Assembly (NCBI GenBank): GCA_009782215.1
Contig: WRKO01000008.1
Coordinates: forward strand, 7,365 to 71,364
From: Oscillospiraceae bacterium
Lineage (GTDB): Bacteria; Bacillota; Clostridia; Oscillospirales; UBA929
Reading direction: 5' to 3'
DNA: 64,000 nucleotides
Numbering within the stretch: the stretch's first letter is position 1; every line of letters starts with the position of its first letter. A program made the translations under genes and the position numbers. Below are positions 14,033-63,967 of this stretch, piece after piece. The notes under the pieces were generated by a model. That model saw nothing but the letters and a program-made list of their open reading frames with translations. It was not told the DNA's origin and searched no databases.

Positions 14033-14878
14033 ATGGAACAGATGACGATGACCATCGAGGAACTGGATCGGCTGCTCGCCTTGGAGGACGGCGACGCGGC
14101 CTTGGTTTTTCTCTCCAACAAACGCGGGCGCGAGCCGATAATCGGCGAAACGCGGCTGCTGCAAGCGCGGAAAAAACTCGGCGGCGCCGGCCTGCTCCCG
14201 TCGTCCTACGCCGCGACCCCGTCATACAGCCAAAAAGAAATCGCCGACAGCAAGCTGACCGACCCGGGCTTTTGCACGGTGGTTGACGAAACGGAACGCC
14301 TGATGGGCAAGGCGCTCTCCCCGTCTGATTTGCAGATTCTGATGGGGATTCGGAAATGGCACGGGCTGCCGGGCAACGTCATCCTGCTGCTGCTCTATCA
14401 CTGCGAAGCGGAACAAAAAAGGCGCGGGAGAGCCTTAACAATGCGCATATTGGATAAAGAAGCGCATATTTGGGAGAAAGAAGGCGTCTTCACAATGGAG
14501 ACCGCCGAGCAGTACATAGAGCGAAAAGAGCGCTCGCGGAACCACACCTCCCGCGTGTTTTCCGCGCTGGGAATTTTTGATCGCGTACCGTCGCCGACCG
14601 AGAAAAAATTCGTCGCGTCATGGCTGGAAATGGGCTTTACCGTGGAAGCCATCGCAATGGCGTACGACAAAACGGTGGTCATCACCGGCGGGCTGGCTTG
14701 GCCGTACTGCGACAAAATCCTGCGCCGCTGGCACCAAAACGGCTGGCATACGCCCGGACAGATTGAAACCTACGATAAAAAACCCGCCGCGGGCAAGACC
14801 GAAGTGACGGGAAGCTACGATAGAAACCGAGAGGCGCTCAAGCGCATCATGGAGGAGGAATCAGGGCATGACGGCTGA
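14033..14878 (+). CDS. DnaD-domain replication initiation/membrane attachment protein
   Basis: 281 aa. Tandem DnaD-like repeats (LSPSDLQILMGIRKWHGLPGNVILLLLYHC ... FVASWLEMGFTVEAIAMAY). Overlaps the downstream DnaI-like gene. Confidence 0.75.
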   Translation: MEQMTMTIEELDRLLALEDGDAALVFLSNKRGREPIIGETRLLQARKKLGGAGLLPSSYAATPSYSQKEIADSKLTDPGFCTVVDETERLMGKALSPSDLQILMGIRKWHGLPGNVILLLLYHCEAEQKRRGRALTMRILDKEAHIWEKEGVFTMETAEQYIERKERSRNHTSRVFSALGIFDRVPSPTEKKFVASWLEMGFTVEAIAMAYDKTVVITGGLAWPYCDKILRRWHQNGWHTPGQIETYDKKPAAGKTEVTGSYDRNREALKRIMEEESGHDG

Positions 14879-15836
14879 CCGGCGTATTCTGGCAAAAGCC
14901 CGCCGTGAGTTTGACCGGGATGTTTGGGCGCATCGCCGCCGCCGTGAACAGTGGCGCGACCGGCTGTACGAGGAGGAACCGCGTCTGAAAGAGCTGGACG
15001 CGCAGATACAGCGCGTCTTTTTGGACGCGCTCGCCAACCTCTCGCCCGCCGCGATGGACGCCGCCGCCGCGAAGAGCTTGGATTTGCAGCGCGAGAAGGC
15101 GGGGCTGCTGGAGATGCTGGGCGCGCTGCCCGGCTCGCTGGACGACGCCCCGCTTTGCCCCGTCTGCCATGATTCCGGGTTTTCAGACGGCGAGCCGTGC
15201 GTTTGCATCAAAGAGCGTGTCCAAACGCTGCAAGCCGCCGAGCTGTCCGGCCTGCTGAATTTGCGCGGCCAGTCCTTTGACACGTTTGACGCCGGCATTT
15301 TCTCCGACGCCGTCGACCCGGGGCAGAACGGCTCTCCCCGCCAAAACATCGAGGAAATCCGCGACTTTTGCTACGCCTACTGCCGCAAGATACGCCCGCA
15401 ATCCAAAAACCTGCTCTTCTCAGGCCCGCCCGGAACGGGCAAAACCTTCCTCTCCGCGTGTATGGCGGGCGCCGCCGTTGAGCAGGGCTTTTCCGTGGTA
15501 TACGACACCGCCGTGCGGCAGTTGGCCAAAATGGAAGCGGTGCAGTTCGGGCGTGGCGGCGAGGACGCCGAAGCCGACGCCGAACGGCTGCGCGACTGTG
15601 ACTTCCTCATCATCGACGACCTAGGCGCCGAGTTTCTCACCGCCTTCACCCAAGCCGCGCTGCTGGACTTAATCAACACCCGCCTCATTTCCGGCAAAAA
15701 GACCCTTGCCAGCACCAACCTCACCCGCCCCGACCTCCGCGCCCGCTATTCCCCCGCGCTGGCAAGCCGCTTGGAAGGCGAGTTTTTATGGCTGGACTTC
15801 TTCGGCGCGGATTTGCGTCAACGTTCGGGAGGCTGA
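14868..15836 (+). CDS. DnaI/DnaC-like AAA+ helicase loader
   Basis: Zn-ribbon CPVCHDSGFSDGEPCVC, Walker A GPPGTGKTFL, Walker B FLIIDDLGAE. IstB/DnaC-like. Confidence 0.8.
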   Translation: MTADRRILAKARREFDRDVWAHRRRREQWRDRLYEEEPRLKELDAQIQRVFLDALANLSPAAMDAAAAKSLDLQREKAGLLEMLGALPGSLDDAPLCPVCHDSGFSDGEPCVCIKERVQTLQAAELSGLLNLRGQSFDTFDAGIFSDAVDPGQNGSPRQNIEEIRDFCYAYCRKIRPQSKNLLFSGPPGTGKTFLSACMAGAAVEQGFSVVYDTAVRQLAKMEAVQFGRGGEDAEADAERLRDCDFLIIDDLGAEFLTAFTQAALLDLINTRLISGKKTLASTNLTRPDLRARYSPALASRLEGEFLWLDFFGADLRQRSGG

Positions 15837-50122: not shown

Positions 50123-50273
50123 GTAGGCCCGCCTTCCTGTCAAGCGCGGCGGCGCAAATGCGCTGCGCCCGGACGCGCTCTCCGTTTAATAACAAACAAG
50201 CCACGCAGCGCGCGGCTTTCGGTTTGTTGAATACATCCGCGCCGTATCTTCCCTGCCGGGTAACGGGACGCTT

Positions 50274-50474
50274 CTATGCCCTGCCAAACTTGCGGTTGAA
50301 ACGGTCAACGCGCCCGCCGGTGTCCACCAGCTTTTGCTTTCCGGTAAAGAAAGGGTGGCAGCGGGAACAGATTTCAACACGGATGTTTTCCCGCGTGGAG
50401 CCTGTTTCGATGACCTCGCCGCAGGCACAGCGGATGGTCGTCTGCGCGTATTTGGGATGAATCCCGTCTTTCAT
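50274..50474 (-). CDS. rpmE: 50S ribosomal protein L31
   Basis: MKDGIHPKY...[13 protein letters not shown]...[10 protein letters not shown]. Start at ATG 50474. Confidence 0.95.
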
Positions 50475-50585
50475 GGCAATCTCACCTCCGAGGATGGTCT
50501 TGTCGCGCACTCTTTATCATACCACGGCGCGGATACGATTGCAAGCGTTTTTTTTGACGGACGAAAAGGTCGGACGAATGGGCGC

Positions 50586-52046
50586 CTATAGAGTCAGTTG
50601 CTCCGCGTCCTCTCCTGTAATCTGCGCCTTTTTGAGGACTTCCTCTGTCAGGGGTATACTGAGCCGCTCTTTATTTAGAATCTGCTCTATGGTTACAATT
50701 TTGATTTTTTCAACCGCGCGCGGCATATGGATGTTTTTATAGGCGCCGGCAAGGGCCGCCTCTTTGATCATATCCTTGGTCGGCTCTTGCAAGGTGATGA
50801 AAATCCCAGCGGCTGCATTATTCGCTTCTATCGTTCCCCTGAACTCCCGTATCATCGGGGAACTGACCTTGCCGGATTTCACGGAAAACAGAACGTCTTT
50901 ATACTGGCCTTTCTCCTCTTGAATCCGCGCCTTGCCGTCAACTCCGTAATCCTTCCCCTTCTTCTCGTTTATCATGGCCTGATTGTTGGAATAGGTCAGT
51001 ATCGCCCACTTCTCAAATTCCTTGCGTAAGCGGTCGTCTTTTTTCAGCGCCAATGCTTTCGCGCTTTCCATATCTGCCGGGATGCCGTTTTCTTCGATGC
51101 GGCTCATAACGCTTTGGCCATAGGCGCGTAAGCGTCTCAGTATGAGCGATATGCTCTGATAGGATATGTCGATTCCTATCCAAGCGCGCTTCAGCCGCTG
51201 GGCGACGGCGACGGTTGTACCGCACCCACAGTATGCGTCAAGAACGACGTCGCCCTCATTGCTGGAGGCTTTGATGATTCGCTCAAGCAGCGCTTCGGGC
51301 TTCTGCGTCGGATAACCGAGACGTTCTTTTGCCATTGGAGGCAACGCGGGTATATCCCACCAATTCTCCGGTATTTTTCCAAGCTCATTAGGCTTGTACG
51401 TTTTTCCTGTTTTCGTGGTTACGCCTTTACCGGAGGTTTGATAACCGCCTGTTCCTTCGTATGGCACTCTTATAGGGTCGGAGTTAAATGTCCATGTGTT
51501 TGATTTCGTGTACAGAAAAATAGTATCGTGTTTTTTCCCAAAATTATTGCCTGAGCGTCCACCCTGCCTGTAGCACCAAACAATCTCGTTCAAAAAATCG
51601 CCATCCTGCCCGCAAAATACGGCGTCAAGGACGATTTTTAAGTAGTGGCCCACCGTGGGGTCGCAATGCAGGTAAAAACTGCCCGCGGGCTTTAACACGC
51701 GATGGATTTCATTGATGCGTAGCGTCATGGAAACAAGGTATGCCAGCAGGCTGCCTTTTCCGAGAATCCGTTCCAGCCCGATAATCAAGTCAGAGGTCTG
51801 CGCCGTGAAAGCTCCGCTTTTATTCATGCAGATTTCATCAAGTTCGGTCTCCGCCCGTATATTCCATTCCCAAGTATCAACAAAGGCGATGGATTGCGCC
51901 CTGTCCTCTTTTCCTATATTGTTGTAAATCTGATTATAGTTCCGTTTGGAATTGAACGGCGGGTCTATGTAACACAAATCAACAGATTCGTCTCTGATAT
52001 ATCTTCGCAATATATCAAGATTGTCTCCATAATACAGCTTATTCAA
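50586..52046 (-). CDS. beta-class N6A/N4C DNA methyltransferase fused to a C-terminal Mrr-like (PD-(D/E)xK-fold) domain
   Basis: TTG 52046 after AAGGGGG, with a TATAAT at 52073-52068. Motif IV is DPPF (SVDLCYIDPPFNS) and motif I is VVLDAYCGCGTTVAVA. The C-terminal ~150 aa (YGVDGKARI...VLFSVKSGKVSSPMIREFRGTIE...AGIFITL) resemble the Mrr_cat layout. Visibly AT-richer than neighbours. The upstream Arg-rich 87 codons in the track ORF are rejected. Confidence 0.85.
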   Translation of the reverse strand: MNKLYYGDNLDILRRYIRDESVDLCYIDPPFNSKRNYNQIYNNIGKEDRAQSIAFVDTWEWNIRAETELDEICMNKSGAFTAQTSDLIIGLERILGKGSLLAYLVSMTLRINEIHRVLKPAGSFYLHCDPTVGHYLKIVLDAVFCGQDGDFLNEIVWCYRQGGRSGNNFGKKHDTIFLYTKSNTWTFNSDPIRVPYEGTGGYQTSGKGVTTKTGKTYKPNELGKIPENWWDIPALPPMAKERLGYPTQKPEALLERIIKASSNEGDVVLDAYCGCGTTVAVAQRLKRAWIGIDISYQSISLILRRLRAYGQSVMSRIEENGIPADMESAKALALKKDDRLRKEFEKWAILTYSNNQAMINEKKGKDYGVDGKARIQEEKGQYKDVLFSVKSGKVSSPMIREFRGTIEANNAAAGIFITLQEPTKDMIKEAALAGAYKNIHMPRAVEKIKIVTIEQILNKERLSIPLTEEVLKKAQITGEDAEQLTL

Positions 52047-52099
52047 TAGGTGCGCCCCCTTTTTCTCATTATAGCACGGCGGTGCGCTTTGAAGCAAGG

Positions 52100-53296
52100 T
52101 TAAAAATACTCCGCGATATACAAGTCCTTGTGCGGAAACAGCGCTTCCAGCGCCTTCGCGCTGCCGTTGACAGTCACGCCACGTTTCAGCAGGGCCTCGG
52201 CGGGGGTCAGGAAGCCCGTGACGAGCTGGGCGAGGGTTTGGACGTCGGTTTCGAGGTCGGCGGCGGCGCCGGACGGCTTGACCGACGTCACCGCGCCGTT
52301 TTCCCATTCGACGGCGTAGACGCCGGTGTTGGCGGGCAGGGCATCGTCCGTGACGGCGAGGGTTACGCGGCCCGGCTGGGCGGGCGCTTTCAGCAGCGCC
52401 AGCGCGCGCGGGACGTGGAGGATGCGGTTCATGCCGTATGCGGGGCGGGCGGCGCTGACCTCAAAGGCGTCGCCAATCAGGGCGGGCAGGCAGACGCCGC
52501 CGGGGGCGTCCCATTTAAGAGTTTCAAACTCCGGCGCCAGCGCGCCGATCAGCCCGAGCATCGCCCGCATCCCTTCGGGGGTGGTCCACGCCATTTCGCG
52601 GATTTTGAGAATATCGCCGCCGTCGCCGTCTTCAGCACTGCACAGCATATATGCGTCGGGCGCGCCGTTTTCGTCCCGGTTAAGGTAGGCGTAATGCTTG
52701 GTGATGTAAGGGTCATGCTCCGCCCGCGCCCGCATGGACGCGATATCCCGGACAAGGGGGAGGTTTTTATCCAAGGTAAACGCTTCGTACACCGTCAGCA
52801 ATTCGGCCATATCGCCGCCGGGAAACACCTGCTCCGCCCGCTCCGGCATACGGTATTCGCAAAACAAATCCATCGGCGCGGTTACGCGGTTGGGCGTATA
52901 GCACAGCTCGTAGCCGAACTTGCGGTAAAACTCAAACGAAAAGGGATAGAGGAAGGAAAAGACCTTGCCCTCCTCCCGCATGGCGGGCAGGATGACCTCA
53001 AACAGCCCGCGGACATAGCCTTTGCGGCGTTCCTCCGCCGGCGTGGCGATGCCGGCGACGCCGCCCATCGGGACAGTGTGCCCGTCAAAGCGCACGCTAT
53101 AATCCAAAACGCCGGCGACCGAACACATTTTGCCCCTGCCGTCAAAGGCCGCCCAGACGCCCTCGTATGCTTCCTCCTGCGCCAAATCGTCGGCCAGACG
53201 TTCCTGATAGCCCTCCGTCTCCGCGCTGAGATAGACCATCTTTCTCAGCAAATCCGCCGCGGCCCGTTCCTCCGGCTTGATGGTTCGGATGCTCAT
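52100..53296 (-). CDS. Eis-like GNAT acetyltransferase with SCP2-like C-terminal domain
   Basis: 398 aa. The GNAT motif RRKGYVRGLF, the three-domain size and the tail (LAQLVTGFLTPAEA) are typical of the Eis/DUF GNAT_acetyltran family. Confidence 0.85.
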   Translation of the reverse strand: MSIRTIKPEERAAADLLRKMVYLSAETEGYQERLADDLAQEEAYEGVWAAFDGRGKMCSVAGVLDYSVRFDGHTVPMGGVAGIATPAEERRKGYVRGLFEVILPAMREEGKVFSFLYPFSFEFYRKFGYELCYTPNRVTAPMDLFCEYRMPERAEQVFPGGDMAELLTVYEAFTLDKNLPLVRDIASMRARAEHDPYITKHYAYLNRDENGAPDAYMLCSAEDGDGGDILKIREMAWTTPEGMRAMLGLIGALAPEFETLKWDAPGGVCLPALIGDAFEVSAARPAYGMNRILHVPRALALLKAPAQPGRVTLAVTDDALPANTGVYAVEWENGAVTSVKPSGAAADLETDVQTLAQLVTGFLTPAEALLKRGVTVNGSAKALEALFPHKDLYIAEYF

Positions 53297-57107: not shown

Positions 57108-57136
57108 TTGACAAGGGGCAAAATATACTGTATACT
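57108..57136 (+). promoter_or_regulatory. tRNA-Leu promoter
   Basis: TTGACA (57108-57113), 17 nt, TATACT (57131-57136), 13 nt before the tRNA 5' end. Confidence 0.6.
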
Positions 57137-57149
57137 TCTGGTGCGAAGG

Positions 57150-57234
57150 GCGAGAGTGGCGGAACTGGCAGACGCGCACGTTTGAGGGGCGTGTGGTTTA
57201 CACCGTACGGGTTCAAGTCCCGTCTCCCGCACCA
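57150..57234 (+). tRNA. tRNA-Leu (anticodon GAG)
   Basis: 85 nt, class II. Acceptor GCGAGAG/CTCCCGC (one A-C mismatch), D-arm GTGGCGGAACTGGCAGACGCGC, anticodon stem CACGT/GCGTG with loop TTGAGGG, long variable arm, T-arm GGGTTCAAGTCCC, encoded CCA. Confidence 0.9.
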
Positions 57235-57238
57235 GCGA
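57212..57238 (+). repeat. attL core (27-bp direct repeat)
   Basis: TTCAAGTCCCGTCTCCCGCACCAGCGA, identical to 63904-63930. Covers the tRNA T-arm/acceptor 3' half plus 4 nt. Confidence 0.9.
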
Positions 57239-57240
57239 GA

Positions 57241-57275
57241 AATCCTGTGGTTGCAACGACTACAGGATTTTTTCT
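57241..57275 (+). terminator. element-encoded terminator for the tRNA
   Basis: AATCCTGT...ACAGGATT stem followed by a T-run, just inside attL. Confidence 0.6.
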
Positions 57276-57294
57276 TTGTTTGTTTTCGGGCGCT

Positions 57295-57325
57295 TACCCC
57301 TACGTTTACCCCTAACAGCTTTTTT
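57295..57325. repeat. 31-bp repeat with two TACCCCTA units (candidate integrase arm-type sites, int-proximal arm)
   Basis: TACCCCTACGTTTACCCCTAACAGCTTTTTT, identical to 63767-63797. TACCCCTA at 57295 and 57307. Confidence 0.6.
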
Positions 57326-58511
57326 ACCCGCCCTTTTCAACACTCTGTATAAACGCTTCCATTCTCGCCGCGCTGTTCTGTTTCATCCGCTCACTCACAT
57401 GACCGTACACGTCGAGCGTAAAGCTGGCGGTGTGGTGTCCTAATGTTTCCTGTACCGTCTTTATATCGTCCCCGGATTGCAAGGCAGTGACGGCGTAAGT
57501 ATGGCGCAAGTCGTGGAAGCGTGTTTCTGGTACGCCTATCTGTGCGACCAGTCGTTTGAACTCTTTATAGACCGATTGTACAGACAGATTTTGACCGAGC
57601 GGGTTTGTAAAGACAAGCCCGGTATCTTCCCATGCTGACCCGGCTTTTATCTGCTCCTCCGCTTGCCGCCGCCGTTGCTCTCTTAACGCCGCCATCACTG
57701 ACGGCGCGGGGGATATGCGGCGGCTTTTGTCGTTCTTGGGTGAGATAAATTCATATTTGCCCTTGTTGTCGGTGTGGTTTCTTTGCAGTTGTCGGTCAAT
57801 GAGGATTGTTCCGCGCTCGAAGTCGATACAACCCCATGTAAGCCCTAAAACCTCGCCCTGCCGCAAACCGCAAAACAGCGTCACACGAAAGACGACTTCC
57901 CATTTATGTCCCTGTATGGTTTTTATGAACTCAACTATTTTTTCATCACACAGCGGTTGTATTTGTGCCTTGACAGCGCGAGGCAGTTCTATAGCGTCTG
58001 CAGGGTTGAAGCGAAGATACCCAAGTTTAACGGTTTGCTGTAATGCTTTGTGAAGTACGCCGTGGATGTTCTTAACGGTTTTCGCGGATAATCCCGGCTT
58101 GCCCGACGTTCCCTTGTGGAGACCATTATACATGGTCTGTATCATATGTGCCGACAATGCCGACAGTCTGACCGCGCCTAACCCCGGCTTTAAGTAAAGT
58201 CGGCAGACCATCGAATATGTTCCAACCGTGCGCGGCTTCACGCCGCCCAGATATTCAGCCGTCCAAATATCAAGCCACTGGCTGACTGTCAGCTTTGACG
58301 GCTCTGTAAAAGTGCCGTCGGCAATCCCGGTCTTGATAGCGTCGAGCTTCTTCACGGCTTCGCGCTGTGTTTCGGCGTAGACGGACTTTCTAATTGGCTT
58401 GCCCGTCCCCGGATTCGTCCCGGTGCTGTACCGCCCCTCCCATGTTCCGTCCGGGCGCTGACGGATAGACCCGGAGCCGGAGGCGTTGCGGGTGTTTTTA
58501 CGCTTTGGCAT
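57324..58511 (-). CDS. tyrosine-type site-specific integrase
   Basis: ATG 58511 after GGAGGA. SAM-like N-domain. Catalytic residues appear in GLRQGEVLGL (R), HDLRHTYAV (H-x-x-R) and LGHHTASFTLDVYGHV (H...Y). Confidence 0.95.
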   Translation of the reverse strand: MPKRKNTRNASGSGSIRQRPDGTWEGRYSTGTNPGTGKPIRKSVYAETQREAVKKLDAIKTGIADGTFTEPSKLTVSQWLDIWTAEYLGGVKPRTVGTYSMVCRLYLKPGLGAVRLSALSAHMIQTMYNGLHKGTSGKPGLSAKTVKNIHGVLHKALQQTVKLGYLRFNPADAIELPRAVKAQIQPLCDEKIVEFIKTIQGHKWEVVFRVTLFCGLRQGEVLGLTWGCIDFERGTILIDRQLQRNHTDNKGKYEFISPKNDKSRRISPAPSVMAALREQRRRQAEEQIKAGSAWEDTGLVFTNPLGQNLSVQSVYKEFKRLVAQIGVPETRFHDLRHTYAVTALQSGDDIKTVQETLGHHTASFTLDVYGHVSERMKQNSAARMEAFIQSVEKGG

Positions 58512-59250
58512 GGTTGTCGTCCTCCAATTCATCTGTGATTCGTGAAATTACTTCCGCTATTGCGAACCGTGCTATCGTGTGTGCTTCGGTAAGGCTCTTC
58601 AATTTTTTTGCGGCGTTTTGCCTTGCCAGCATACGCATATCAGCCTCTATTTTTTCTTCGTCTACAACCAACGACGTCACACCATTTATTTCCACCGCCA
58701 CACTATGCTCTCGCTCAAGCTGCCATTTTGTGGGGATTAGCCTTTGGTATTCAACATCTTCTAAATCGAACTTAGACGCCGTTGCCAGTTCGCGCTTGCA
58801 ACGCCTCGCCTCGCCAAAGGCGTTAATCAAACGCCGAAAATCCTTGCAGCATAAAAGTTCACTTGTGAATGACAGAGCCGCGTTATTCGCCAACTGCACC
58901 AAAGAATCGTCGCTGTTCGCCAGACTTTGCAAGGATACAATCGCCGCCTCTGACAAGCCCGTAGCTTCTTGTATGTCAGTTTTTTCTTTTGTCTTGCAGG
59001 GATAATCGCAAAGCAAATACCCAAGCTCACATTCAAACAATACACACATAAGGAGCGTATCTGCAAGCGGAGGCAATCTTTTCCCAGATTCCCAAAAACT
59101 AACCGTTGTCCTGTTGCGGTTGAGCTTATTTGCTAACTCGTCTTGTGTTAGCTTCAACGCTTCCCGTGTCTCGCTTATGCGCTTCCCTACCTGTATCCTT
59201 CGTTGCTCATAAAATTCGATGTTGTGCATATTCAACCAACTTTCTCTCAT
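58498..59250 (-). CDS. cI-like XRE-family repressor with extended C-terminal domain
   Basis: IQVGKRISETREALKLTQDELANKLNRNRTTVSFWESGKRLP is an HTH_3. About 170 further residues are of unknown function. The start could be 59250 or 59229. Divergent from the cro-like gene. Confidence 0.8.
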   Translation of the reverse strand: MRESWLNMHNIEFYEQRRIQVGKRISETREALKLTQDELANKLNRNRTTVSFWESGKRLPPLADTLLMCVLFECELGYLLCDYPCKTKEKTDIQEATGLSEAAIVSLQSLANSDDSLVQLANNAALSFTSELLCCKDFRRLINAFGEARRCKRELATASKFDLEDVEYQRLIPTKWQLEREHSVAVEINGVTSLVVDEEKIEADMRMLARQNAAKKLKSLTEAHTIARFAIAEVISRITDELEDDNHAKA

Positions 59251-59277
59251 TCGTTATTTTCGTCTACCACTTGTTGC

Positions 59278-59314
59278 TTGACTACATCATATCACGGGTG
59301 TAGACTGGTGTCAA
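59278..59314. promoter_or_regulatory. overlapping divergent promoters of the cI-like / cro-like switch
   Basis: + strand: TTGACT (59278-59283), 17 nt, TAGACT (59301-59306). Minus strand: TTGACA (59314-59309), 17 nt, TATGAT (59291-59286). The two promoters interdigitate. Confidence 0.55.
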
Positions 59315-59343
59315 TAATTTTTATTCTTAGGGAGGGCGTACAA

Positions 59344-59532
59344 GTGGTAAACATTATGATTCGCGCAGAAATGCGGCGTTCGCGTTTCCGGCAGTATGAA
59401 ATTGCGGCCGCTGCCGGATATAGCGAAACGGCATTTTCAAGGATGCTTCGGTATGAGCTGACAGCGGAACAGCTTGAGCGTGTCCGTGACGCTGTCGCAC
59501 TGCTGGCGCAGGATGCAAGCTATGAAGAATAA
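59344..59532 (+). CDS. small Cro-like regulator
   Basis: GGAGGG, then 7 nt, then GTG 59344 (or ATG 59356). MIRAEMRRSRFRQYEIAAAAGYSETAFSRMLRYELTAEQLERV has an HTH-like core. First gene of the rightward operon. Confidence 0.6.
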   Translation: MVNIMIRAEMRRSRFRQYEIAAAAGYSETAFSRMLRYELTAEQLERVRDAVALLAQDASYEE

Positions 59533-59737
59533 CTCGATTATGACGGATTGGGGCGCTCTGCCGCTCGTCTTGTCCGCCGCTGACGTCGGGAAAGTCTTGG
59601 GACTTTCGAAGCCAAGCATTTACACCCTGCTCAACCGGAAAGACTTCCCCACGATTCGGCTCACCGAGCGGCGGGTGGTGGTGAGTCGGGACGCGCTTCG
59701 GCGCTGGCTTGAGGATGGGACAGGAAGGGGAGTATGA
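59522..59737 (+). CDS. excisionase-like (MerR/Xis-type HTH_17) DNA-binding protein
   Basis: LSAADVGKVLGLSKPSIYTLLNRKDFPTIRLTERRVVVSRDALRRWLE is the classic helix-turn-helix excisionase-family pattern. Confidence 0.75.
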   Translation: MKNNSIMTDWGALPLVLSAADVGKVLGLSKPSIYTLLNRKDFPTIRLTERRVVVSRDALRRWLEDGTGRGV

Positions 59738-59741
59738 CGGG

Positions 59742-60410
59742 ATGACTCGCAAGTCATTTTCAATCCACTCGGACTTTTATTCCGAGTTGCGCAACCTCTC
59801 CCCGGAAAGTCGCGGGGCTGTCTTGCTTGCGCTCCTGAATTGGGCGGAAGGGCTTGACACCCTACCGCTGGCCCCTGAGGGCGCGATACTGTTTCGCTTG
59901 ATGACGGCGCAGATGGAGCGGCTTTCGTCCGCCAACTCTGCCAATGGTAAAAGGGGCGGTGCCCCTGATGGTAACCGGAACGCGGCAAAATCAAGCGAAA
60001 CAAGCGAGGGTGAGAAAAACGAGCCAATCAAGCCCTCCGACTCCGTATCCACAGCCGCTACCGTAACCGTTTTTACGGGGAGTATTGGGCGCTCGGCGTC
60101 AGCCGAGCCGCCAAAACGCACAAAATTCACCCCGCCGTCTGTCGATGAGGTCGCGGAGTATTGCGCCGAGCGGAAGAGCCTGATAGACGCAGCTCAGTTT
60201 TGTGATTACTACGCTTCGCAGGGCTGGCGGGTGGGGAAGAACCCCATGAGCGACTGGCGCGCCGCAGTCAGAAATTGGGGGCGAGGCAACCACAGCGGGC
60301 TTGCCCGCGCTTCACCCGAACCACAGATACCGCAGCGCGTCGGAGATGCTTTTGGGCGAAATCGCCGCGCCCTGCAACAGGCTCGTTTGGATGATGCTGG
60401 GAATTTATAG
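59742..60410 (+). CDS. phage-type replication-associated-like protein (DUF6291-like N-terminus)
   Basis: FSIHSDFYSELRNLSPESRGAVLLALLNWA, and FTPPSVDEVAEYCAERKSLIDAAQFCDYYASQGWRVGKNPMSDWRAAVRNW. I remember these motifs from phage replication-module accessory proteins. Function not established. Confidence 0.6.
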   Translation: MTRKSFSIHSDFYSELRNLSPESRGAVLLALLNWAEGLDTLPLAPEGAILFRLMTAQMERLSSANSANGKRGGAPDGNRNAAKSSETSEGEKNEPIKPSDSVSTAATVTVFTGSIGRSASAEPPKRTKFTPPSVDEVAEYCAERKSLIDAAQFCDYYASQGWRVGKNPMSDWRAAVRNWGRGNHSGLARASPEPQIPQRVGDAFGRNRRALQQARLDDAGNL

Positions 60411-60428
60411 GAAAGGATTTGTCGGCTT

Positions 60429-60791
60429 TTGGGTAGAAAAGTCAGTCGCGAAGCGGCCGTTCAGGCGCTTGTCGGCAATCCAAACGTCAAAATTGCCGCC
60501 GCCGACTGCGGCGTATCGGAGCGAACTTTGCACCGCTGGTTGCGTGAGCCGGATTTTTCTGTGCGGCTTGCGGAAGCGCAGCGCGGCGTGACAAAGCGTG
60601 TCGTGCGTTCGGTCATAGGGAGAGCGGAAAAGGCTGTGCGTGTGCTGGATGAAATCATGTCGAACGTCGAGACCGCCGCGCCCGCACGGGTTTCAGCCGC
60701 CAAAACGGTGCTGGAATTTACGCTAAAGGCAATCGAGCTGGAGGAAATCGTTGGAAGAATTGAGATGCTAGAAAGGCGGGCGGATGGGTGA
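60429..60791 (+). CDS. HTH protein resembling the N-terminal part of phage small terminase subunits
   Basis: VKIAAADCGVSERTLHRWLREPDFSVRLAEAQRG followed by a helical tail. TTG start. The assignment is by pattern resemblance only. Confidence 0.5.
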   Translation: MGRKVSREAAVQALVGNPNVKIAAADCGVSERTLHRWLREPDFSVRLAEAQRGVTKRVVRSVIGRAEKAVRVLDEIMSNVETAAPARVSAAKTVLEFTLKAIELEEIVGRIEMLERRADG

Positions 60792-61006
60792 TGAATTACC
60801 AAATCGCAAAGCGCTTGAAAGAAATCGAGCGGCAGTATGGCACAGCAATGACGCTAATCGTCAAAATTGACGAAAAGCATCGAGAAATGACCGTTACGGA
60901 GTTTGAGCAGTCGTCCGACGCTCGGTTTGTGCGGGTCAAAAGCGGCTCATGCCTGAAAGACCTTGACAGAATACTTGACAGGCTATTGGGTGGTTGTGTG
61001 ATATAG
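60788..61006 (+). CDS. hypothetical protein
   Basis: 72-aa ORF overlapping the upstream stop (GTGATG). No family recognised. Confidence 0.5.
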   Translation: MMNYQIAKRLKEIERQYGTAMTLIVKIDEKHREMTVTEFEQSSDARFVRVKSGSCLKDLDRILDRLLGGCVI

Positions 61007-61037
61007 TGCCAAAAAAACAGAAAAGGAGAGAAAACAA

Positions 61038-61514
61038 ATGAACGCAATTCAAAAATATGCAGCGGAAACAAAAGCGCGTTTTACCAAGCTTGACGCGGCA
61101 ATCGCTGAATTTGAAGCCCGCAAACAGGAACTCACGGCGCAAATCGACAACAACGGCGGCGATTATTCGCTAAAGGCCGTCCAAGGCACCGGCGCACTGC
61201 GCATGGAACTTTCCCAGATAAGCGAGGCGTTGGAACGGGCGCAAGGACAGCGGAGGACAATGGCGGGCGACATGGCGGTAAACATTAACGCCACCTTGTC
61301 GCGCGTGTTGTACGAACACATCGGGGACATTGGCAAAGAAAACGCCGGACGCATAAGGGAAATATGGGACTTCAAATCAAGAACGCCTACAAACATACTG
61401 CCCCCCTATCTATCGCATGACGGCGCGAACGCCGAAATAATCCGCTGCATTGAGAGGAAATGCCGGAGCTACAACAGGGAGTTTGAGCAGCAAGGGGAAG
61501 GAGGCGGAAAATAG
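61038..61514 (+). CDS. hypothetical protein (coiled-coil N-terminus)
   Basis: 158-aa ORF. AAAAGGAGAG RBS 7 nt upstream of the ATG. Confidence 0.6.
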   Translation: MNAIQKYAAETKARFTKLDAAIAEFEARKQELTAQIDNNGGDYSLKAVQGTGALRMELSQISEALERAQGQRRTMAGDMAVNINATLSRVLYEHIGDIGKENAGRIREIWDFKSRTPTNILPPYLSHDGANAEIIRCIERKCRSYNREFEQQGEGGGK

Positions 61515-61663
61515 TGGATGACTTGTTTTTAGCCGGATTTGACGGCCGGAAGCCTACACCCCCACGCACAAGGGAAGAATTGCGGGAAGAAATTGAACGC
61601 GCCGAGCAGTATATAGCAAGACTTCAAGGCAATTTGGAATCCATGCCCGGTGAAGCGGAATAA
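61514..61663 (+). CDS. small hypothetical protein (49 aa, below the track cutoff)
   Basis: My own reading: GTG 61514 overlaps the previous stop (TAGTG), with GGAGG 9 nt upstream. (M)DDLFLAGFDGRKPTPPRTREELREEIERAEQYIARLQGNLESMPGEAE. Followed by the hairpin at 61688-61707. Confidence 0.4.
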   Translation: MDDLFLAGFDGRKPTPPRTREELREEIERAEQYIARLQGNLESMPGEAE

Positions 61664-61713
61664 GCTCCTTTGGCATACATGGGAAAAGGTCGGGATTACT
61701 CCCGACCTTCTCC

Positions 61714-61762
61714 GGCCCGCAAGGGGCAGAATCAATTTTGTTTGGCCCGCAAGGGGCAGAAT
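61714..61762. repeat. two 19-bp direct repeats with inverted tails
   Basis: GGCCCGCAAGGGGCAGAAT at 61714 and 61744 (30-bp period). Each contains a GCCC-GCAA-GGGC mini-hairpin. The tails, AATCAATT and AATTGATT, are mutual reverse complements. Confidence 0.7.
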
Positions 61763-61825
61763 TGATTCCCAAAGTCCTTCAAGCTCTATAGAACTTTAAG
61801 TCCTATAGGTATGATACCACATGGT

Positions 61826-62389
61826 TTATGCTTTGTCAATGACAATTTTTTCTGTCGGTTTCTTTATAATCATCTGTTTTATTCTATTGTCAATGGCGTC
61901 CAAGTGTGCGGGGGAAAGTCTTGCCCATTGGTCGCCCTTCTTTAGAGGTCTGATGATTCGCATTTTGCTGACCGCCCGTATCTGCGCTGGCTTGGCTACT
62001 GTGTCAAACGGCGTCCATGAAATAATGTTGCTGCCTAAATACAAGTCAGCCTTTGCGACGTCGGCAGGGGTTTTCCCAAGCTCTAACGATGTGAGCGGTA
62101 TAACCATAATGTTGCCGCCAGTCTTGCTGTTATCATGTTCCAACACCGCCGCATAATGTACACCGCCATACTCATTGCCGACATTGAAACCAAAATCGAC
62201 ATAGACAATATCGCCGCGCTTATAGCGGGGTATGTATTCCGGCTTAAATGTATCCTCCAGAGTAAGATAGCGATTCCATCTGACAATCCATTTTGTAATA
62301 ATGTCCTGTCTTTTAGGGGATAACTTTGAGATTGTCGCTTTTAGCTTGTCAAGAGCAACATCAAGCGCATCGGGTGTAGGTGTGTTCAT
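61826..62389 (-). CDS. PemK/MazF-family toxin with ~65-aa N-terminal extension
   Basis: RGDIVYVDFGFNVGNEYGGVHYAAVLEH...IMVIPLTS matches the MazF/PemK core (GD..v.f....G.E..g.rPa.Vl...v.PlTs). At 187 aa it is far longer than canonical ~115-aa MazF. ATGA overlap with the upstream gene. Confidence 0.75.
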   Translation of the reverse strand: MNTPTPDALDVALDKLKATISKLSPKRQDIITKWIVRWNRYLTLEDTFKPEYIPRYKRGDIVYVDFGFNVGNEYGGVHYAAVLEHDNSKTGGNIMVIPLTSLELGKTPADVAKADLYLGSNIISWTPFDTVAKPAQIRAVSKMRIIRPLKKGDQWARLSPAHLDAIDNRIKQMIIKKPTEKIVIDKA

Positions 62390-62619
62390 TCGTGTTTGTC
62401 CTCCTCAGTCTCCGCCGCACACTCCATAGGGCGGCCTGTGGCGTCCTCTACGGCCTTGTTGAGCACACCCCGTATAAACCCATTCGTAGACTGCCCCGTC
62501 GCTGTAGCGGCGGCTACAATGCGCTCCTTCGCGCCTATGCGGGCTTTGAATGTGATGTATTGGAAGTTTTCTTTGTCGTACCTATCCCGGTAGCTCTTTT
62601 GTTTCTCACTTACAGGCAT
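62386..62619 (-). CDS. putative cognate antitoxin (RHH/Arc-like)
   Basis: ATG 62619 after GAGGTGG. FQYITFKARIGAKERIVAAATATGQSTNGFIRGVLNKAV has a beta-strand/helix/helix pattern. Acidic tail. Translationally coupled to the toxin. Confidence 0.6.
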   Translation of the reverse strand: MPVSEKQKSYRDRYDKENFQYITFKARIGAKERIVAAATATGQSTNGFIRGVLNKAVEDATGRPMECAAETEEDKHE

Positions 62620-62638
62620 ATGCACCACCTCTGAATAT

Positions 62639-62746
62639 ATTATATCACAAACAGCGGGTCGTTACAACGTAGCATATTGCACAAAAACTACGTTGTAACT
62701 TTGTGCAATACTACATATTGACAACTACGTGATAACGTAGTATGAT
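62639..62746. promoter_or_regulatory. divergent promoter region with nested palindromic operators
   Basis: Minus-strand promoter: TTGTAA (62667-62662), 17 nt, TATAAT (62644-62639). Plus-strand promoter: TTGACA (62718-62723), 17 nt, TATGAT (62741-62746). Inverted repeats: GTTACAACGTAG (62661-62672)/CTACGTTGTAAC (62688-62699); ATTGCACAAA (62676-62685)/TTTGTGCAAT (62700-62709); CTACGT-GATA-ACGTAG (62725-62740). Confidence 0.65.
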
Positions 62747-62867
62747 AAAATCAGACAGAGGGACAAACACGCGGGGCGCTTGCCAAATAAGGCCGCAGAC
62801 AGCCGCCGAACCGCCTGACGCTCCGCCGCACCGTCCCTCAGACAAAACAGGAAGGAGGAATATCGCC

Positions 62868-63158
62868 ATGACAAGCGCGAACACCACTAACCCCGACATG
62901 AGCGCCATCGCCCGCGAGTACCGCGAACTGCAAGCCATGATTCGGGAACTCCAAGAGGAAGCCGACGCGAAGAAGCAAATCATGGTAGACGCTATGGACA
63001 CGGCGAAGGTGGAGGAGCTGGCCGCCGGTGAGTACACCATCCGCTACACGGTGTATGAGAGTAGCCGCCTTGACAGCGCCAAGCTGAAAGCCGACCACGC
63101 CGGACTGTACGCCGCCTACACCAAGCCAACAGTGGCGACGCGCTTCCAAGTGGCATGA
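62868..63158 (+). CDS. hypothetical protein
   Basis: AGGAAGGAGGAA RBS 7 nt before ATG 62868. 96 aa with a coiled-coil N-terminus and a C-terminal TIRYTVYESSRLDSAKLKADHAGLYAAYTKPTVATRFQV. Function unknown. Confidence 0.65.
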   Translation: MTSANTTNPDMSAIAREYRELQAMIRELQEEADAKKQIMVDAMDTAKVEELAAGEYTIRYTVYESSRLDSAKLKADHAGLYAAYTKPTVATRFQVA

Positions 63159-63252
63159 GAGAGACCCAACCAAAGAGCGCAAACCGCGCCCGTTGACAAC
63201 AGCATACGACCGGCGGGCGCGGCTTGTCTACTATGAAAGGATTGATTAAACC

Positions 63253-63516
63253 ATGAGTAACACGACATTCGGCCACAAGAAACACGCGGACGCGCTGCTG
63301 GAAATCGAAGGGCTTGTATGCGATGTGCTGATGCTGGCTGAGGGCATGACGGTGGAGAACGATAACCTCGACCCCCAGAAACAGATACAGACATTCGAGG
63401 GCGCGTTCCGTCTGATTTGCCCGCCGCTTGAAAAAGCATTTGAAACGCTAACAGAGCTGGAAGTCGATTTCAGGTCATCACATGGGCTAAAATACGGAGA
63501 GGAGGAAACGGCATGA
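63253..63516 (+). CDS. hypothetical protein
   Basis: 87-aa acidic ORF. GAAAGGA RBS. Confidence 0.5.
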   Translation: MSNTTFGHKKHADALLEIEGLVCDVLMLAEGMTVENDNLDPQKQIQTFEGAFRLICPPLEKAFETLTELEVDFRSSHGLKYGEEETA

Positions 63517-63695
63517 ATGAAAAACACCGCATCCGCGATGACCTTATCAATGAACATCATGTCTTATCCATGAGTCTCGGCTATCTATGCAAAGGCTTTT
63601 TCTTAGGGGTGCTGACATATCGTTTTGTCCTTCGGCGCTGGAGAAAAGACTGGCCGAGAATTGAAGCCCTAAAAAGGCGCATAGAGGGCGAATAG
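63513..63695 (+). CDS. hypothetical small membrane protein
   Basis: 60 aa, 4-nt overlap with the previous gene, one hydrophobic segment (GYLCKGFFLGVLTYRFVL). Followed by the hairpin GAGAAAGGGCTG...CAGCCCCTTCTC. Confidence 0.45.
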   Translation: MNEKHRIRDDLINEHHVLSMSLGYLCKGFFLGVLTYRFVLRRWRKDWPRIEALKRRIEGE

Positions 63696-63746
63696 GTTGA
63701 CATGAGAAAGGGCTGGCTATCGCACGTCAGCCCCTTCTCCATTCTC

Positions 63747-63797
63747 TACCCCTAAAAGCGATTTACTACCCCTACGTTTACCCCTAACAGCTTTTTT
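63747..63797. repeat. three TACCCCTA units incl. the 31-bp repeat (candidate arm-type sites, distal arm)
   Basis: TACCCCTA at 63747, 63767 and 63779. 63767-63797 is identical to 57295-57325. Confidence 0.6.
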
Positions 63798-63903
63798 TCG
63801 TTTTATCCTTATTTATCCCAAAACCGACAAACCCATTGCAACGCCTAAATTCTTTTGCGTTCGTTTTTCTTTGTTTTTCCTGCTTTGTTCATGCGTAAGC
63901 CAA

Positions 63904-63930
63904 TTCAAGTCCCGTCTCCCGCACCAGCGA
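63904..63930 (+). repeat. attR core (27-bp direct repeat)
   Basis: TTCAAGTCCCGTCTCCCGCACCAGCGA. A displaced tRNA 3' fragment, not a complete tRNA. Confidence 0.9.
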
Positions 63931-63935
63931 AAAAC

Positions 63936-63967
63936 GCTGCAACCGCAATGGTTGCAGCGTTTTTTTT
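63936..63967 (+). terminator. ancestral tRNA-Leu terminator displaced by the insertion
   Basis: CGCTGCAACC-GCAAT-GGTTGCAGCG followed by T7. Confidence 0.65.

Follow-up and report, generated by a model that had tools for sequence, protein, structure and literature searches.

The window analysed here, a 64,000-nt stretch of contig WRKO01000008.1 from an Oscillospiraceae metagenome-assembled genome (MAG; protein MCL2003260.1), carries near its right end a small integrase-bounded element lodged in a tRNA-Leu(GAG) gene. Its gene set and the relatives of those genes indicate that this element is probably an intact, helper-dependent phage satellite of the phage-inducible chromosomal island (PICI) kind, and an unusually small one. 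With both terminal repeats it measures 6,719 bp, or a 6,692-bp unit when one repeat core is counted. The integrity of its parts speaks for this reading, as the attachment (att) cores and arm repeats are perfect and the int, repressor, cro and xis genes are full-length and accompanied by promoter and operator features.

All 14 open reading frames (ORFs) of the element were profiled against Pfam and PHROGs, and ten ORFs each, the key ones included, against NCBIfam and PADLOC. No capsid, portal, tail, large terminase subunit (TerL), holin, lysin, primase, helicase or relaxase family was recognised among the 14 ORFs (Pfam and PHROGs; ten ORFs in NCBIfam), which agrees with the absence of virion, lysis, primase and helicase genes claimed in a preliminary description of this DNA; the profile check of every ORF for a degraded structural module likewise revealed none. 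The gene content first described was recovered as well, namely an HTH_3 repressor, an HTH_37 cro, an HTH_17/AlpA Xis, a DUF6291 protein, a helix-turn-helix (HTH) protein matching small terminase subunit (TerS) PHROGs, and a PemK/MazF toxin. The ORFs tile the element, with the largest gaps at about 100–240 bp, and there is therefore no room for decayed structural genes. At 6.7 kb in total and lacking head, tail, TerL and lysis modules, the element is not a functional temperate prophage, and the components regarded as forbidden in PICIs (tail, holin, portal and head–tail connector genes) were found in none of the 14 ORFs by Pfam or PHROGs. At the nucleotide level, only the tRNA and the 3′ end of the integrase gene matched known phages, and nothing beyond the tRNA matched plasmid records.

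A small-terminase-like protein and its overlapping partner

Two overlapping genes lie in the middle of the element:

60429–60791, + strand: small-terminase-like HTH protein of 120 aa, here "HTH120", so designated on PHROG, fold and context evidence
60788–61006, + strand: o72, the partner ORF, which overlaps the stop codon of the TerS-like gene and has an N-terminal KRLKEIE helix motif

The resemblance of HTH120 to small terminases noted in the preliminary description held when the protein was tested against small-terminase families by PHROG profiles, by fold and by the position of its homologs. HTH120 gave weak matches to two TerS PHROGs, with phrog_2538 ("terminase small subunit") at 4.5e-5. 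Its AlphaFold2 (AF2) model, built with 24 homologs, reached a predicted local distance difference test (pLDDT) score of 89.6 and has a long helical hairpin after an HTH of three helices; the top match of this model in the PDB was 2AO9 (Foldseek E 0.15, probability 0.96), with Sf6 TerS lower down, and in BFVD many matches annotated as small terminases were obtained, the best at 7e-5. In the literature, 2AO9 is treated as the putative TerS, a nonamer, of a prophage from Bacillus cereus (PMC7672466). In Thermoanaerobacterium phage THSA-485A, the homolog Tsac_2863 is annotated as TerS and lies in the gene order RinA, x, TerS, TerL (PBSX type), portal, and in the circular virome contig L078 (MT836267.1) the homolog overlaps by 4 nt a 460-aa TerL (phrog_3717, 1.3e-48). 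A leave-out profile recovered the TerS of THSA-485A at E 5e-8 and the L078 homolog at E 1e-27. Because homologs directly precede TerL in THSA-485A and in L078, the HTH120 family includes proteins in the TerS position, and it is this gene context that decides the predicted membership of HTH120 in the TerS family.

The distribution of the family points the same way. By tblastn, 13 of 50,697 phage records contain a homolog, comprising nine entries named "Streptococcus satellite phage Javan" (8–15 kb), two of THSA-485A and two fecal-virome scaffolds, and a species-representative genome collection yielded 43 loci with a homolog, spread over many phyla. The gene upstream of family members typically encodes a primase-helicase (D5_N; DnaG zinc ribbon with AAA_25; Toprim with DUF927; or Prim-Pol with AAA_25), and the large ORFs downstream of the homologs at genome loci are host genes, not TerL. 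Among the 33 genome loci for which at least 9 kb was fetched, 16 contain a tyrosine recombinase and none a TerL, the TerL census being an iterated search seeded with two PBSX-type TerLs whose sensitivity is confined to that kind. A TerS gene that lacks a TerL partner and stands next to an integrase and a replication gene is characteristic of satellites of the PICI type. The family is large, with 20,295 clusters at 50% identity in a 1.84-billion-protein library (E <= 1e-3); many of its top-scoring members are 260–350 aa long with two matched stretches and look like tandem-duplicated TerS-like proteins.

The same distribution bears on whether this is an integrative mobilizable element, which a conjugative helper would move and whose HTH proteins would serve as regulators or as accessory factors of the relaxosome. 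Mobilizable elements are frequent among the small integrase-bounded islands of Bacillota, and mobilization through an oriT alone is conceivable. We regard this account as highly improbable, since the TerS-like family has no homolog in 72,556 plasmid records and is present in phage and satellite records, and since no relaxase, coupling protein or Rep_trans-type gene was found in any ORF (Pfam and PHROGs; NCBIfam for ten).

Some relatives of HTH120 deserve mention as observations in their own right. L078 is 11,458 bp long with a 124-bp terminal overlap, so it is circular, and it carries an integrase similar to that of the window, a cI-like HTH ORF (by eye), a primase, a TerS of the HTH120 family and an entire TerL; the ORFs scanned gave no recognisable capsid, portal or tail gene. 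The contig has the look of a circular, satellite-like element with a whole terminase of its own. L052 (IMGVR_UViG_3300009873_002319), circular as well by a 144-bp terminal overlap in 7,849 bp, has genes for a primase of 777 aa and for a homolog of the TerS-like protein (profile E 1e-31); it may represent a satellite that persists as an episome, or a small element of plasmid type. The closest diverged homolog with fetched flanks (66% identity; L058, QMCE01078022.1, 1–847) lies directly 3′ of the end of a major head protein gene (phrog_422, 2.7e-16), and therefore some close TerS-like relatives sit in capsid-encoding elements. In L036 (Lawsonibacter MAG JBMNQA010000002.1, 4800–16300) and L077 (MT837364.1), a tape-measure gene follows a few genes past the cassette (TMP_3 1.2e-46; phrog_1535 2.8e-34); between cassette and tape measure there is no TerL-sized ORF, and the scanned ORFs gave no head or portal match. 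These two loci may be islands with a tape measure and no head genes, or decayed prophages.

The partner ORF o72 begins MMNYQIAKRLKEIE and carries both features that mark the ORF right after family members, which usually overlaps the stop codon by 4 nt and often has an N-terminal [RK][LIMV]xx[LIM][ED] helix motif (28 of 61 downstream ORFs vs 61 of 3,723 similar-sized controls). A small-ORF profile built without the window placed o72 at E 0.019 among 6,285 ORFs, a marginal value that its position supports. In L078, the same motif makes up the N-terminal ~37 residues of TerL, and the part matched by TerL profiles begins after it. The small protein is thus separate in most elements and fused to TerL in L078, which suggests that proteins of the o72 type may work with TerL. 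A further step, possible and still doubtful, would be that the TerS-like gene and the overlapping small ORF form a conserved two-gene hijacking cassette that marks a large, as yet unnamed, cross-phylum class of terminase-borrowing satellites, the small protein being a detached TerL N-terminal extension. If so, the small protein would be an adaptor that plugs a satellite TerS into the TerL of a helper, or a decoy that blocks the helper TerS, and such elements would need neither primase nor capsid-remodelling genes.

Related elements and the case for a decayed prophage

The nearest relative of the whole element is L056, a 6,086-bp contig from the same metagenome (ENA assembly ERZ27257348) as L006/L073. 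At both ends, over the 3′ half of the repressor gene, the right-end operon and the arm repeat, L056 is 90–98% identical to the window in nucleotides, and the 31-bp arm repeat is exact; its repressor, Xis and DUF6291 proteins are only 52–63% identical to those of the window, with 63% for Xis, and its middle differs, with a G39P-like loader, a VRR-NUC protein and others. No virion gene was found in L056, either in the recorded Pfam matches of its called genes or in the four ORFs scanned. By this comparison, L056 is a mosaic sibling that would measure ~7.7 kb if the integrase is common to both. L056 and L006/L073 have near-identical ends and different middles, and their contig breaks fall where the sequences are near-identical, a pattern that suggests strain-level polymorphism at the tRNA-Leu site in the sampled community.

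A more distant relative, L003 (MT837714.1), is a fecal-virome scaffold. Its DUF6291 gene is followed by an ORF of 200 aa, a gene for a sigma-like factor, a TerS-like gene (E 7e-22), an ORF of 62 aa with RLKRLE and one of 221 aa, helical-looking by eye, and then by a convergent RelE-type toxin/antitoxin-like pair (by eye); this gene order matches that of the window element. The virome scaffolds derive from human fecal samples deposited as phage, are unverified and may include contaminating bacterial DNA. That a syntenic and a related small contig (L003 and L078) occur in such a dataset is indirect evidence at most for packaging in helper-derived particles. In the satellite prophage Javan586, int, repressor, cro, replication genes and a primase precede the TerS-like cassette, and the four-gene run that starts with TerS encodes 122/113/189/54 aa vs 120/72/158/49 aa here. 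The proteins after the cassette have their position in common across the window element, L003 and Javan586, and sequence similarity among them was not detected. Furthermore, an island in a Lawsonibacter (Oscillospiraceae) MAG carries an integrase, an HTH_3 repressor, a Prim-Pol helicase, a Mor-like protein and a TerS-like protein, and therefore related islands exist in the host's own family. L056 and the syntenic L003 show that the small layout belongs to a lineage and is not the product of a single deletion.

These relatives are also where a decayed prophage has to be considered. In that case a deletion would have taken the morphogenesis and lysis genes and spared a left arm with int, the switch, xis, the replication initiator gene, TerS and a TerL stub; such a remnant may still excise but would lack any life cycle of its own. 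The order int–cI–cro–xis–replication–TerS is that of temperate siphoviruses, L056 resembles a phage early region that stops before the terminase, and tape-measure genes stand near the cassette in L036 and L077; since the o72 motif stands at the N-terminal end of an entire TerL in L078, o72 could also descend from the 5′ end of a TerL gene. Such a stub, however, would not be expected to recur as motif-bearing ORFs in many phyla, usually with the 4-nt overlap, and the recurrence after nearly half of the family members examined speaks for a maintained gene family and not for a random remnant. TerL, as searched for with PBSX-type seeds, is missing from all 33 genome loci of the census, the reduced layout recurs at <35% identity in Javan586 and L003, and the window element leaves no pseudogene space, has perfect repeats and retains all of its recombination and regulatory parts intact. 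On this balance, decay from a prophage is an unlikely origin, and a helper-dependent satellite remains the preferred explanation.

Ends, switch, replication gene and accessory genes

The ends of the element and its left operon, including the proposed replication gene, comprise the following features:

57150–57234, + strand: tRNA-Leu(GAG), the integration target (ARAGORN; Rfam RF00005 in a local scan), with a promoter-like site at 57108–57136
57212–57238: attL core, 27 bp, identical to attR, which rebuilds the 3′ part of the tRNA
57237–57273, + strand: element-borne tRNA terminator with a 17-pair stem and T-run, after the rebuilt tRNA
57295–57325: putative arm-type repeat of the P′ arm, 31 bp with two TACCCCTA units, identical to 63767–63797
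57324–58532, − strand: tyrosine integrase, longest ORF 402 aa (Phage_integrase 3.5e-23, Phage_int_SAM_3, phrog_1 9e-69)
58498–59250, − strand: cI-like repressor with an N-terminal HTH_3 (phrog_8 and phrog_3 repressors)
59251–59343: switch region with overlapping divergent promoters and the inverted repeat GTCTACCACTTGT / ACAAGTGGTAAAC
59344–59532, + strand: cro-like small HTH protein of 62 aa (HTH_37 7e-4, below cut-off; phrog_4583; public gene call)
59474–59737, + strand: Xis/AlpA-like HTH_17 excisionase, longest ORF (HTH_17 9e-10; phrog_66 excisionase)
59742–60410, + strand: DUF6291 protein of 222 aa (PF19808 2.5e-7; phrog_15768 2e-36)
63735–63797: putative arm-type repeats of the P arm, three TACCCCTA units including the perfect 31-mer
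63904–63930: attR core, 27 bp, a perfect direct repeat of attL
63930–63964, + strand: ancestral tRNA terminator with perfect 15-bp arms and a T-run, after attR, differing from the element-borne hairpin

The tRNA-Leu(GAG) gene scored 42.9 bits against Rfam RF00005 (E 4e-8) in a local 300-bp scan (gathering score 29); a whole-window Rfam scan at the gathering threshold returned zero matches and thus missed this true tRNA gene, so that its negative carries no weight. The architecture of the ends proved to be as first described: the 27-bp repeat that reproduces the 3′ part of the tRNA is perfect, the integrase ORF ends 86 nt inside attL, and the element brings its own terminator for the tRNA, with the ancestral one standing after attR. 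The repeat spans the T-arm, the 3′ acceptor end, CCA and 4 nt of the tRNA-Leu(GAG) gene, and the chance recurrence of a perfect 27-mer within 7.5 kb is negligible. Inside both element ends lies a second perfect direct repeat of 31 bp, TACCCCTACGTTTACCCCTAACAGCTTTTTT, at 57295–57325 and 63767–63797, with a degenerate third copy at 63735–63765. The 31-bp repeats probably serve the integrase as arm-type sites; in the circular form one arm would have three units and the other two, the usual arm-site layout of lambda-type integrases. The integrase, the 27-bp cores and the arm repeats together supply the integrase and element-specific att sites of a PICI.

The public gene call gives the integrase 395 aa with a start at 58511, and the true start of Xis is probably 59522 or 59540. 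The ~170-aa C-terminal part of the repressor gave no family match and no S24 peptidase (Pfam; only HTH families at E <= 0.1). Promoter-like sites in the switch lie at 59314–59286 (− strand) and 59278–59306 (+ strand). The Xis protein scored 21.4 bits against Phage_AlpA (cut-off 21), and with a repressor divergent from a cro-like gene, overlapping promoters and an HTH_17 protein at the AlpA cut-off, the element has the regulation module of a PICI.

The DUF6291 protein qualifies the earlier statement that no replicase is present, which stands as regards primase and helicase and does not as regards initiation. Its C-terminal domain is common to phage proteins with PF09681, PF14297, PF07120 and PF13730 N-termini, which are replisome-organizer or DnaD-like families, and the next gene in its two closest relatives encodes a helicase loader, either G39P-like (PF11417, 4.7e-11) or DnaC/IstB-like. 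Because these relatives precede helicase loaders, the protein occupies the slot of an origin-binding initiator, the slot that G38P holds in SPP1. From gene neighbourhood alone, it is a probable origin-binding replication initiator or replisome organizer. It has no sequence match in the PDB, its AF2 model (two confident domains joined by a disordered linker) returned an empty Foldseek result against the PDB, and no convincing iteron array was found in or near its gene. It is thus plausible that the element has an initiator and would have to borrow primase and helicase.

The genes and sites to the right of the cassette are as follows:

61038–61514, + strand: o158, helical-looking by eye, sharing its position with 189–277-aa proteins in Javan586, L003, L077 and L078
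61514–61663, + strand: o49, small ORF in the same position as the 54-aa Javan586_0014
61682–61767: hairpin and two 24-bp tandem repeats GGCCCGCAAGGGGCAGAATCAATT between the convergent operons
61826–62389, − strand: PemK/MazF-family toxin of 187 aa (PF02452 1.3e-12; phrog_1412, phrog_1936)
62386–62628, − strand: o80, candidate antitoxin of 80 aa, named from its position only, overlapping the toxin start (phrog_13890 6e-6)
62629–62760: divergent promoters and nested palindromes, GTTACAACGTAG / CTACGTTGTAAC and CTACGTGATAACGTAG
62868–63158, + strand: o138, with a real product of ~96 aa (phrog_6244 2e-12; C-terminal part of phrog_434; weak Mu Gam-like match)
63253–63516, + strand: o87, no family match
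63513–63695, + strand: o60, in which one hydrophobic segment is visible by eye; its counterpart in L056 is 88% identical

No significant family match was obtained for o72, o158 or o49 in Pfam or PHROGs, nor any antitoxin family match for o80 in the same databases, and a profile comparison of o158 with the same-position proteins of L003, L077, L078 and Javan586_0013 found nothing, position alone being common. No ORF gave a head-related match, so that a capsid-morphogenesis gene, optional in Gram-positive PICIs, is not recognisable. The tandem 24-bp repeats, at 61714–61767, can each form a small GC hairpin and stand just after a longer hairpin; the 61682–61767 region possibly holds terminators, or a pac or ori site. 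At the right end, promoter-like sites lie at 62718–62746 (+ strand) and 62667–62639 (− strand), and the last three ORFs (o138, o87 and o60) stand behind their own strong promoter embedded in the nested palindromes. A homolog of o138 adjoins an integrase in L002.

Brought together, these features would allow the following life cycle. A lambda-type integrase would insert the element into the 3′ end of the tRNA-Leu(GAG) gene through the 27-bp core and the TACCCCTA arm sites, and the cI-like repressor, which has no self-cleaving protease domain, would hold the rightward operon off at the divergent-promoter switch. Release of the repressor would come through a protein of a helper phage, infecting or induced, by analogy with Stl of Staphylococcus aureus pathogenicity islands (SaPIs). 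De-repression would yield cro, Xis for excision together with Int, and the DUF6291 protein, which would start replication with a helicase and primase borrowed from host or helper. A ring of the TerS-like protein, with the translationally coupled o72, would then recognise the element DNA and recruit the helper TerL for headful packaging. The element would enter helper capsids as multimers, about six unit lengths filling a 40-kb head; multimer packaging would be needed for want of a recognisable capsid-resizing gene. Accessory roles, in stabilisation or in effects on the host or on phage, would fall to the MazF pair and the right-end operon.

A repressor of this kind would also suit a phage-responsive island that excises and replicates upon phage infection, is not packaged, spreads by transformation or another route and mainly benefits its host. 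The MazF toxin pair and a cargo under its own promoter fit such an island, and the StCI satellites of Streptococcus thermophilus, which have the same general make-up, are induced by virulent phages and moved by natural competence (PMC13376191). Against it, a TerS-type protein and its coupled partner have no obvious use without packaging, and no known defence system was detected by PADLOC in ten ORFs, the cargo included, with only generic HTH matches for the repressor; the earlier proposal that the cargo ORFs could be anti-phage functions found no evidence in that search. An unpackaged island of this kind is therefore distinctly improbable.

Several observations weigh against the reading as a packaged, helper-dependent satellite. 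Concerning the terminase, HTH120 fell below the cut-off of PF13022 (phBC6A51-type HTH) in Pfam and had no match in NCBIfam, the Foldseek E value against the PDB is weak, and the sequence and fold matches to TerS are all weak when taken singly; the sibling L056 lacks the TerS cassette, which is thus not indispensable to the integrase lineage, and the tape-measure genes in L036 and L077 mean that some carriers of the cassette may be decayed prophages. Concerning the remaining genes, o158 had no homolog in a search of 5.8 billion proteins, and in place of the primase-replicase of a PICI there is only the DUF6291 protein in the initiator slot. Concerning mobility, neither the predicted attP junction nor the 31-bp arm repeat had an exact match in IMG/VR. 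Exact-protein look-ups with the DUF6291 protein and the left-flank host gene found only one metagenome contig, of the same organism, and no empty site; in this exact form the element is known from a single organism. No helper phage is known for the element, and no helper prophage is seen in the remaining 57 kb of the window, as judged from ORF N-termini and Pfam tags.

That remainder resembles an ordinary chromosome, with pst-like transport genes, dnaG, rpoD, aconitase and others, as judged from ORF N-termini by eye and from precomputed Pfam tags of the neighbouring contig. Within it, a low-GC patch at 50250–52300 (0.46–0.53 vs 0.60–0.68 around) contains a gene whose 486-aa product combines N6_N4_Mtase, Mrr_cat and NA-iREase1 domains (public gene call); it is probably a horizontally acquired gene of the restriction-modification type. 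At 15563–15660 (− strand), ARAGORN reports a candidate tRNA-Leu(TAG) of 98 nt, which is unusually long and overlaps the long ORF 14868–15836.

Comparison with known phage satellites

Phage satellites move defence, virulence and resistance genes and shape phage–host dynamics; those characterised so far come mainly from Proteobacteria and Gram-positive cocci. The literature searched, whose coverage was limited, contained no account of satellites of this kind in gut Clostridia. The element described here suggests that strictly anaerobic gut Clostridia (Oscillospiraceae) carry satellites too, in a form reduced to a regulatory switch, excision genes, an initiator and a TerS cassette, and a TerS-like gene with a coupled small ORF could mark terminase-borrowing islands that are missed by satellite models requiring a primase-replicase.

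The TerS of THSA-485A (Tsac_2863) and 2AO9 (phBC6A51) belong to the same family or fold as HTH120, with an N-terminal HTH and a helical hairpin; they differ in serving a complete phage with its own TerL, which the window element lacks. Capsid-forming PICIs (cfPICIs) encode their own capsid, portal, head–tail adaptor or connector and TerL, none of which is present here.

PICMIs (phage-inducible chromosomal minimalist islands) of Vibrionaceae lie next to fis, have a core of int, alpA and primase with no terS, and depend on virulent Vibrio phages; one of them, PICMI115, is 6,110 bp long and is packaged as 8-mers (PMC10803314). The window element resembles them in its similar size, its minimal gene set and its lack of capsid-remodelling genes, so that it would need to be packaged in concatemeric form. 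In contrast to PICMIs, it lies in a tRNA-Leu gene, has a cI/cro switch and a TerS-like gene and has no primase, and it therefore falls outside that class.

The core of PICIs consists of an integrase, a regulator, a primase-replicase, a capsid-morphogenesis gene and a small terminase (de Sousa et al. 2023, PMC10085698). The window element shares with SaPIs and other PICIs the integrase, divergent regulators, a TerS-like gene without TerL and accessory genes after terS, as well as the absence of tail, holin and portal genes and a repressor that, like Stl, has no self-cleavage domain. Unlike them, it has no primase-replicase and no recognisable capsid-morphogenesis gene, which leaves three of the five core components, and elements with three of five components are treated as unreliable by the authors of SatelliteFinder; it is also smaller than the median PICI size of 9.5 kb (PMC10085698). 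Its TerS-like protein is of the phBC6A51/PF13022-like family, a probable further difference.

Among known elements, the Streptococcus satellite prophages, which are PICI-like islands of Gram-positive cocci, stand nearest. These Javan elements were defined bioinformatically, in a paper that makes no mention of terminase (Rezaei Javan et al. 2019, PMC6813308). Like the window element, they (e.g. Javan586 and Javan328) have a left-end integrase, a leftward repressor and a rightward cro-like gene, followed by a replication module and a homolog of HTH120 (profile E 1e-25 to 5e-31), after which come a small ORF, a 189–205-aa ORF (helical-looking by eye) and further small ORFs, and they have no structural or lysis genes. 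They differ in size and replication genes, being 8–15 kb long with a primase or helicase, whereas the window element has 6.7 kb and a DUF6291 initiator-like protein; in host, which is here a high-GC member of the Oscillospiraceae; and in the downstream proteins, which are alike in position only. The placement first proposed, among satellites of the PICI type or smaller, is thus upheld by the TerS context, the absence of a structural module and the conserved layout, with the amendment that the nearest relatives are Gram-positive PICI-like prophages and not the PICMIs of Vibrio.

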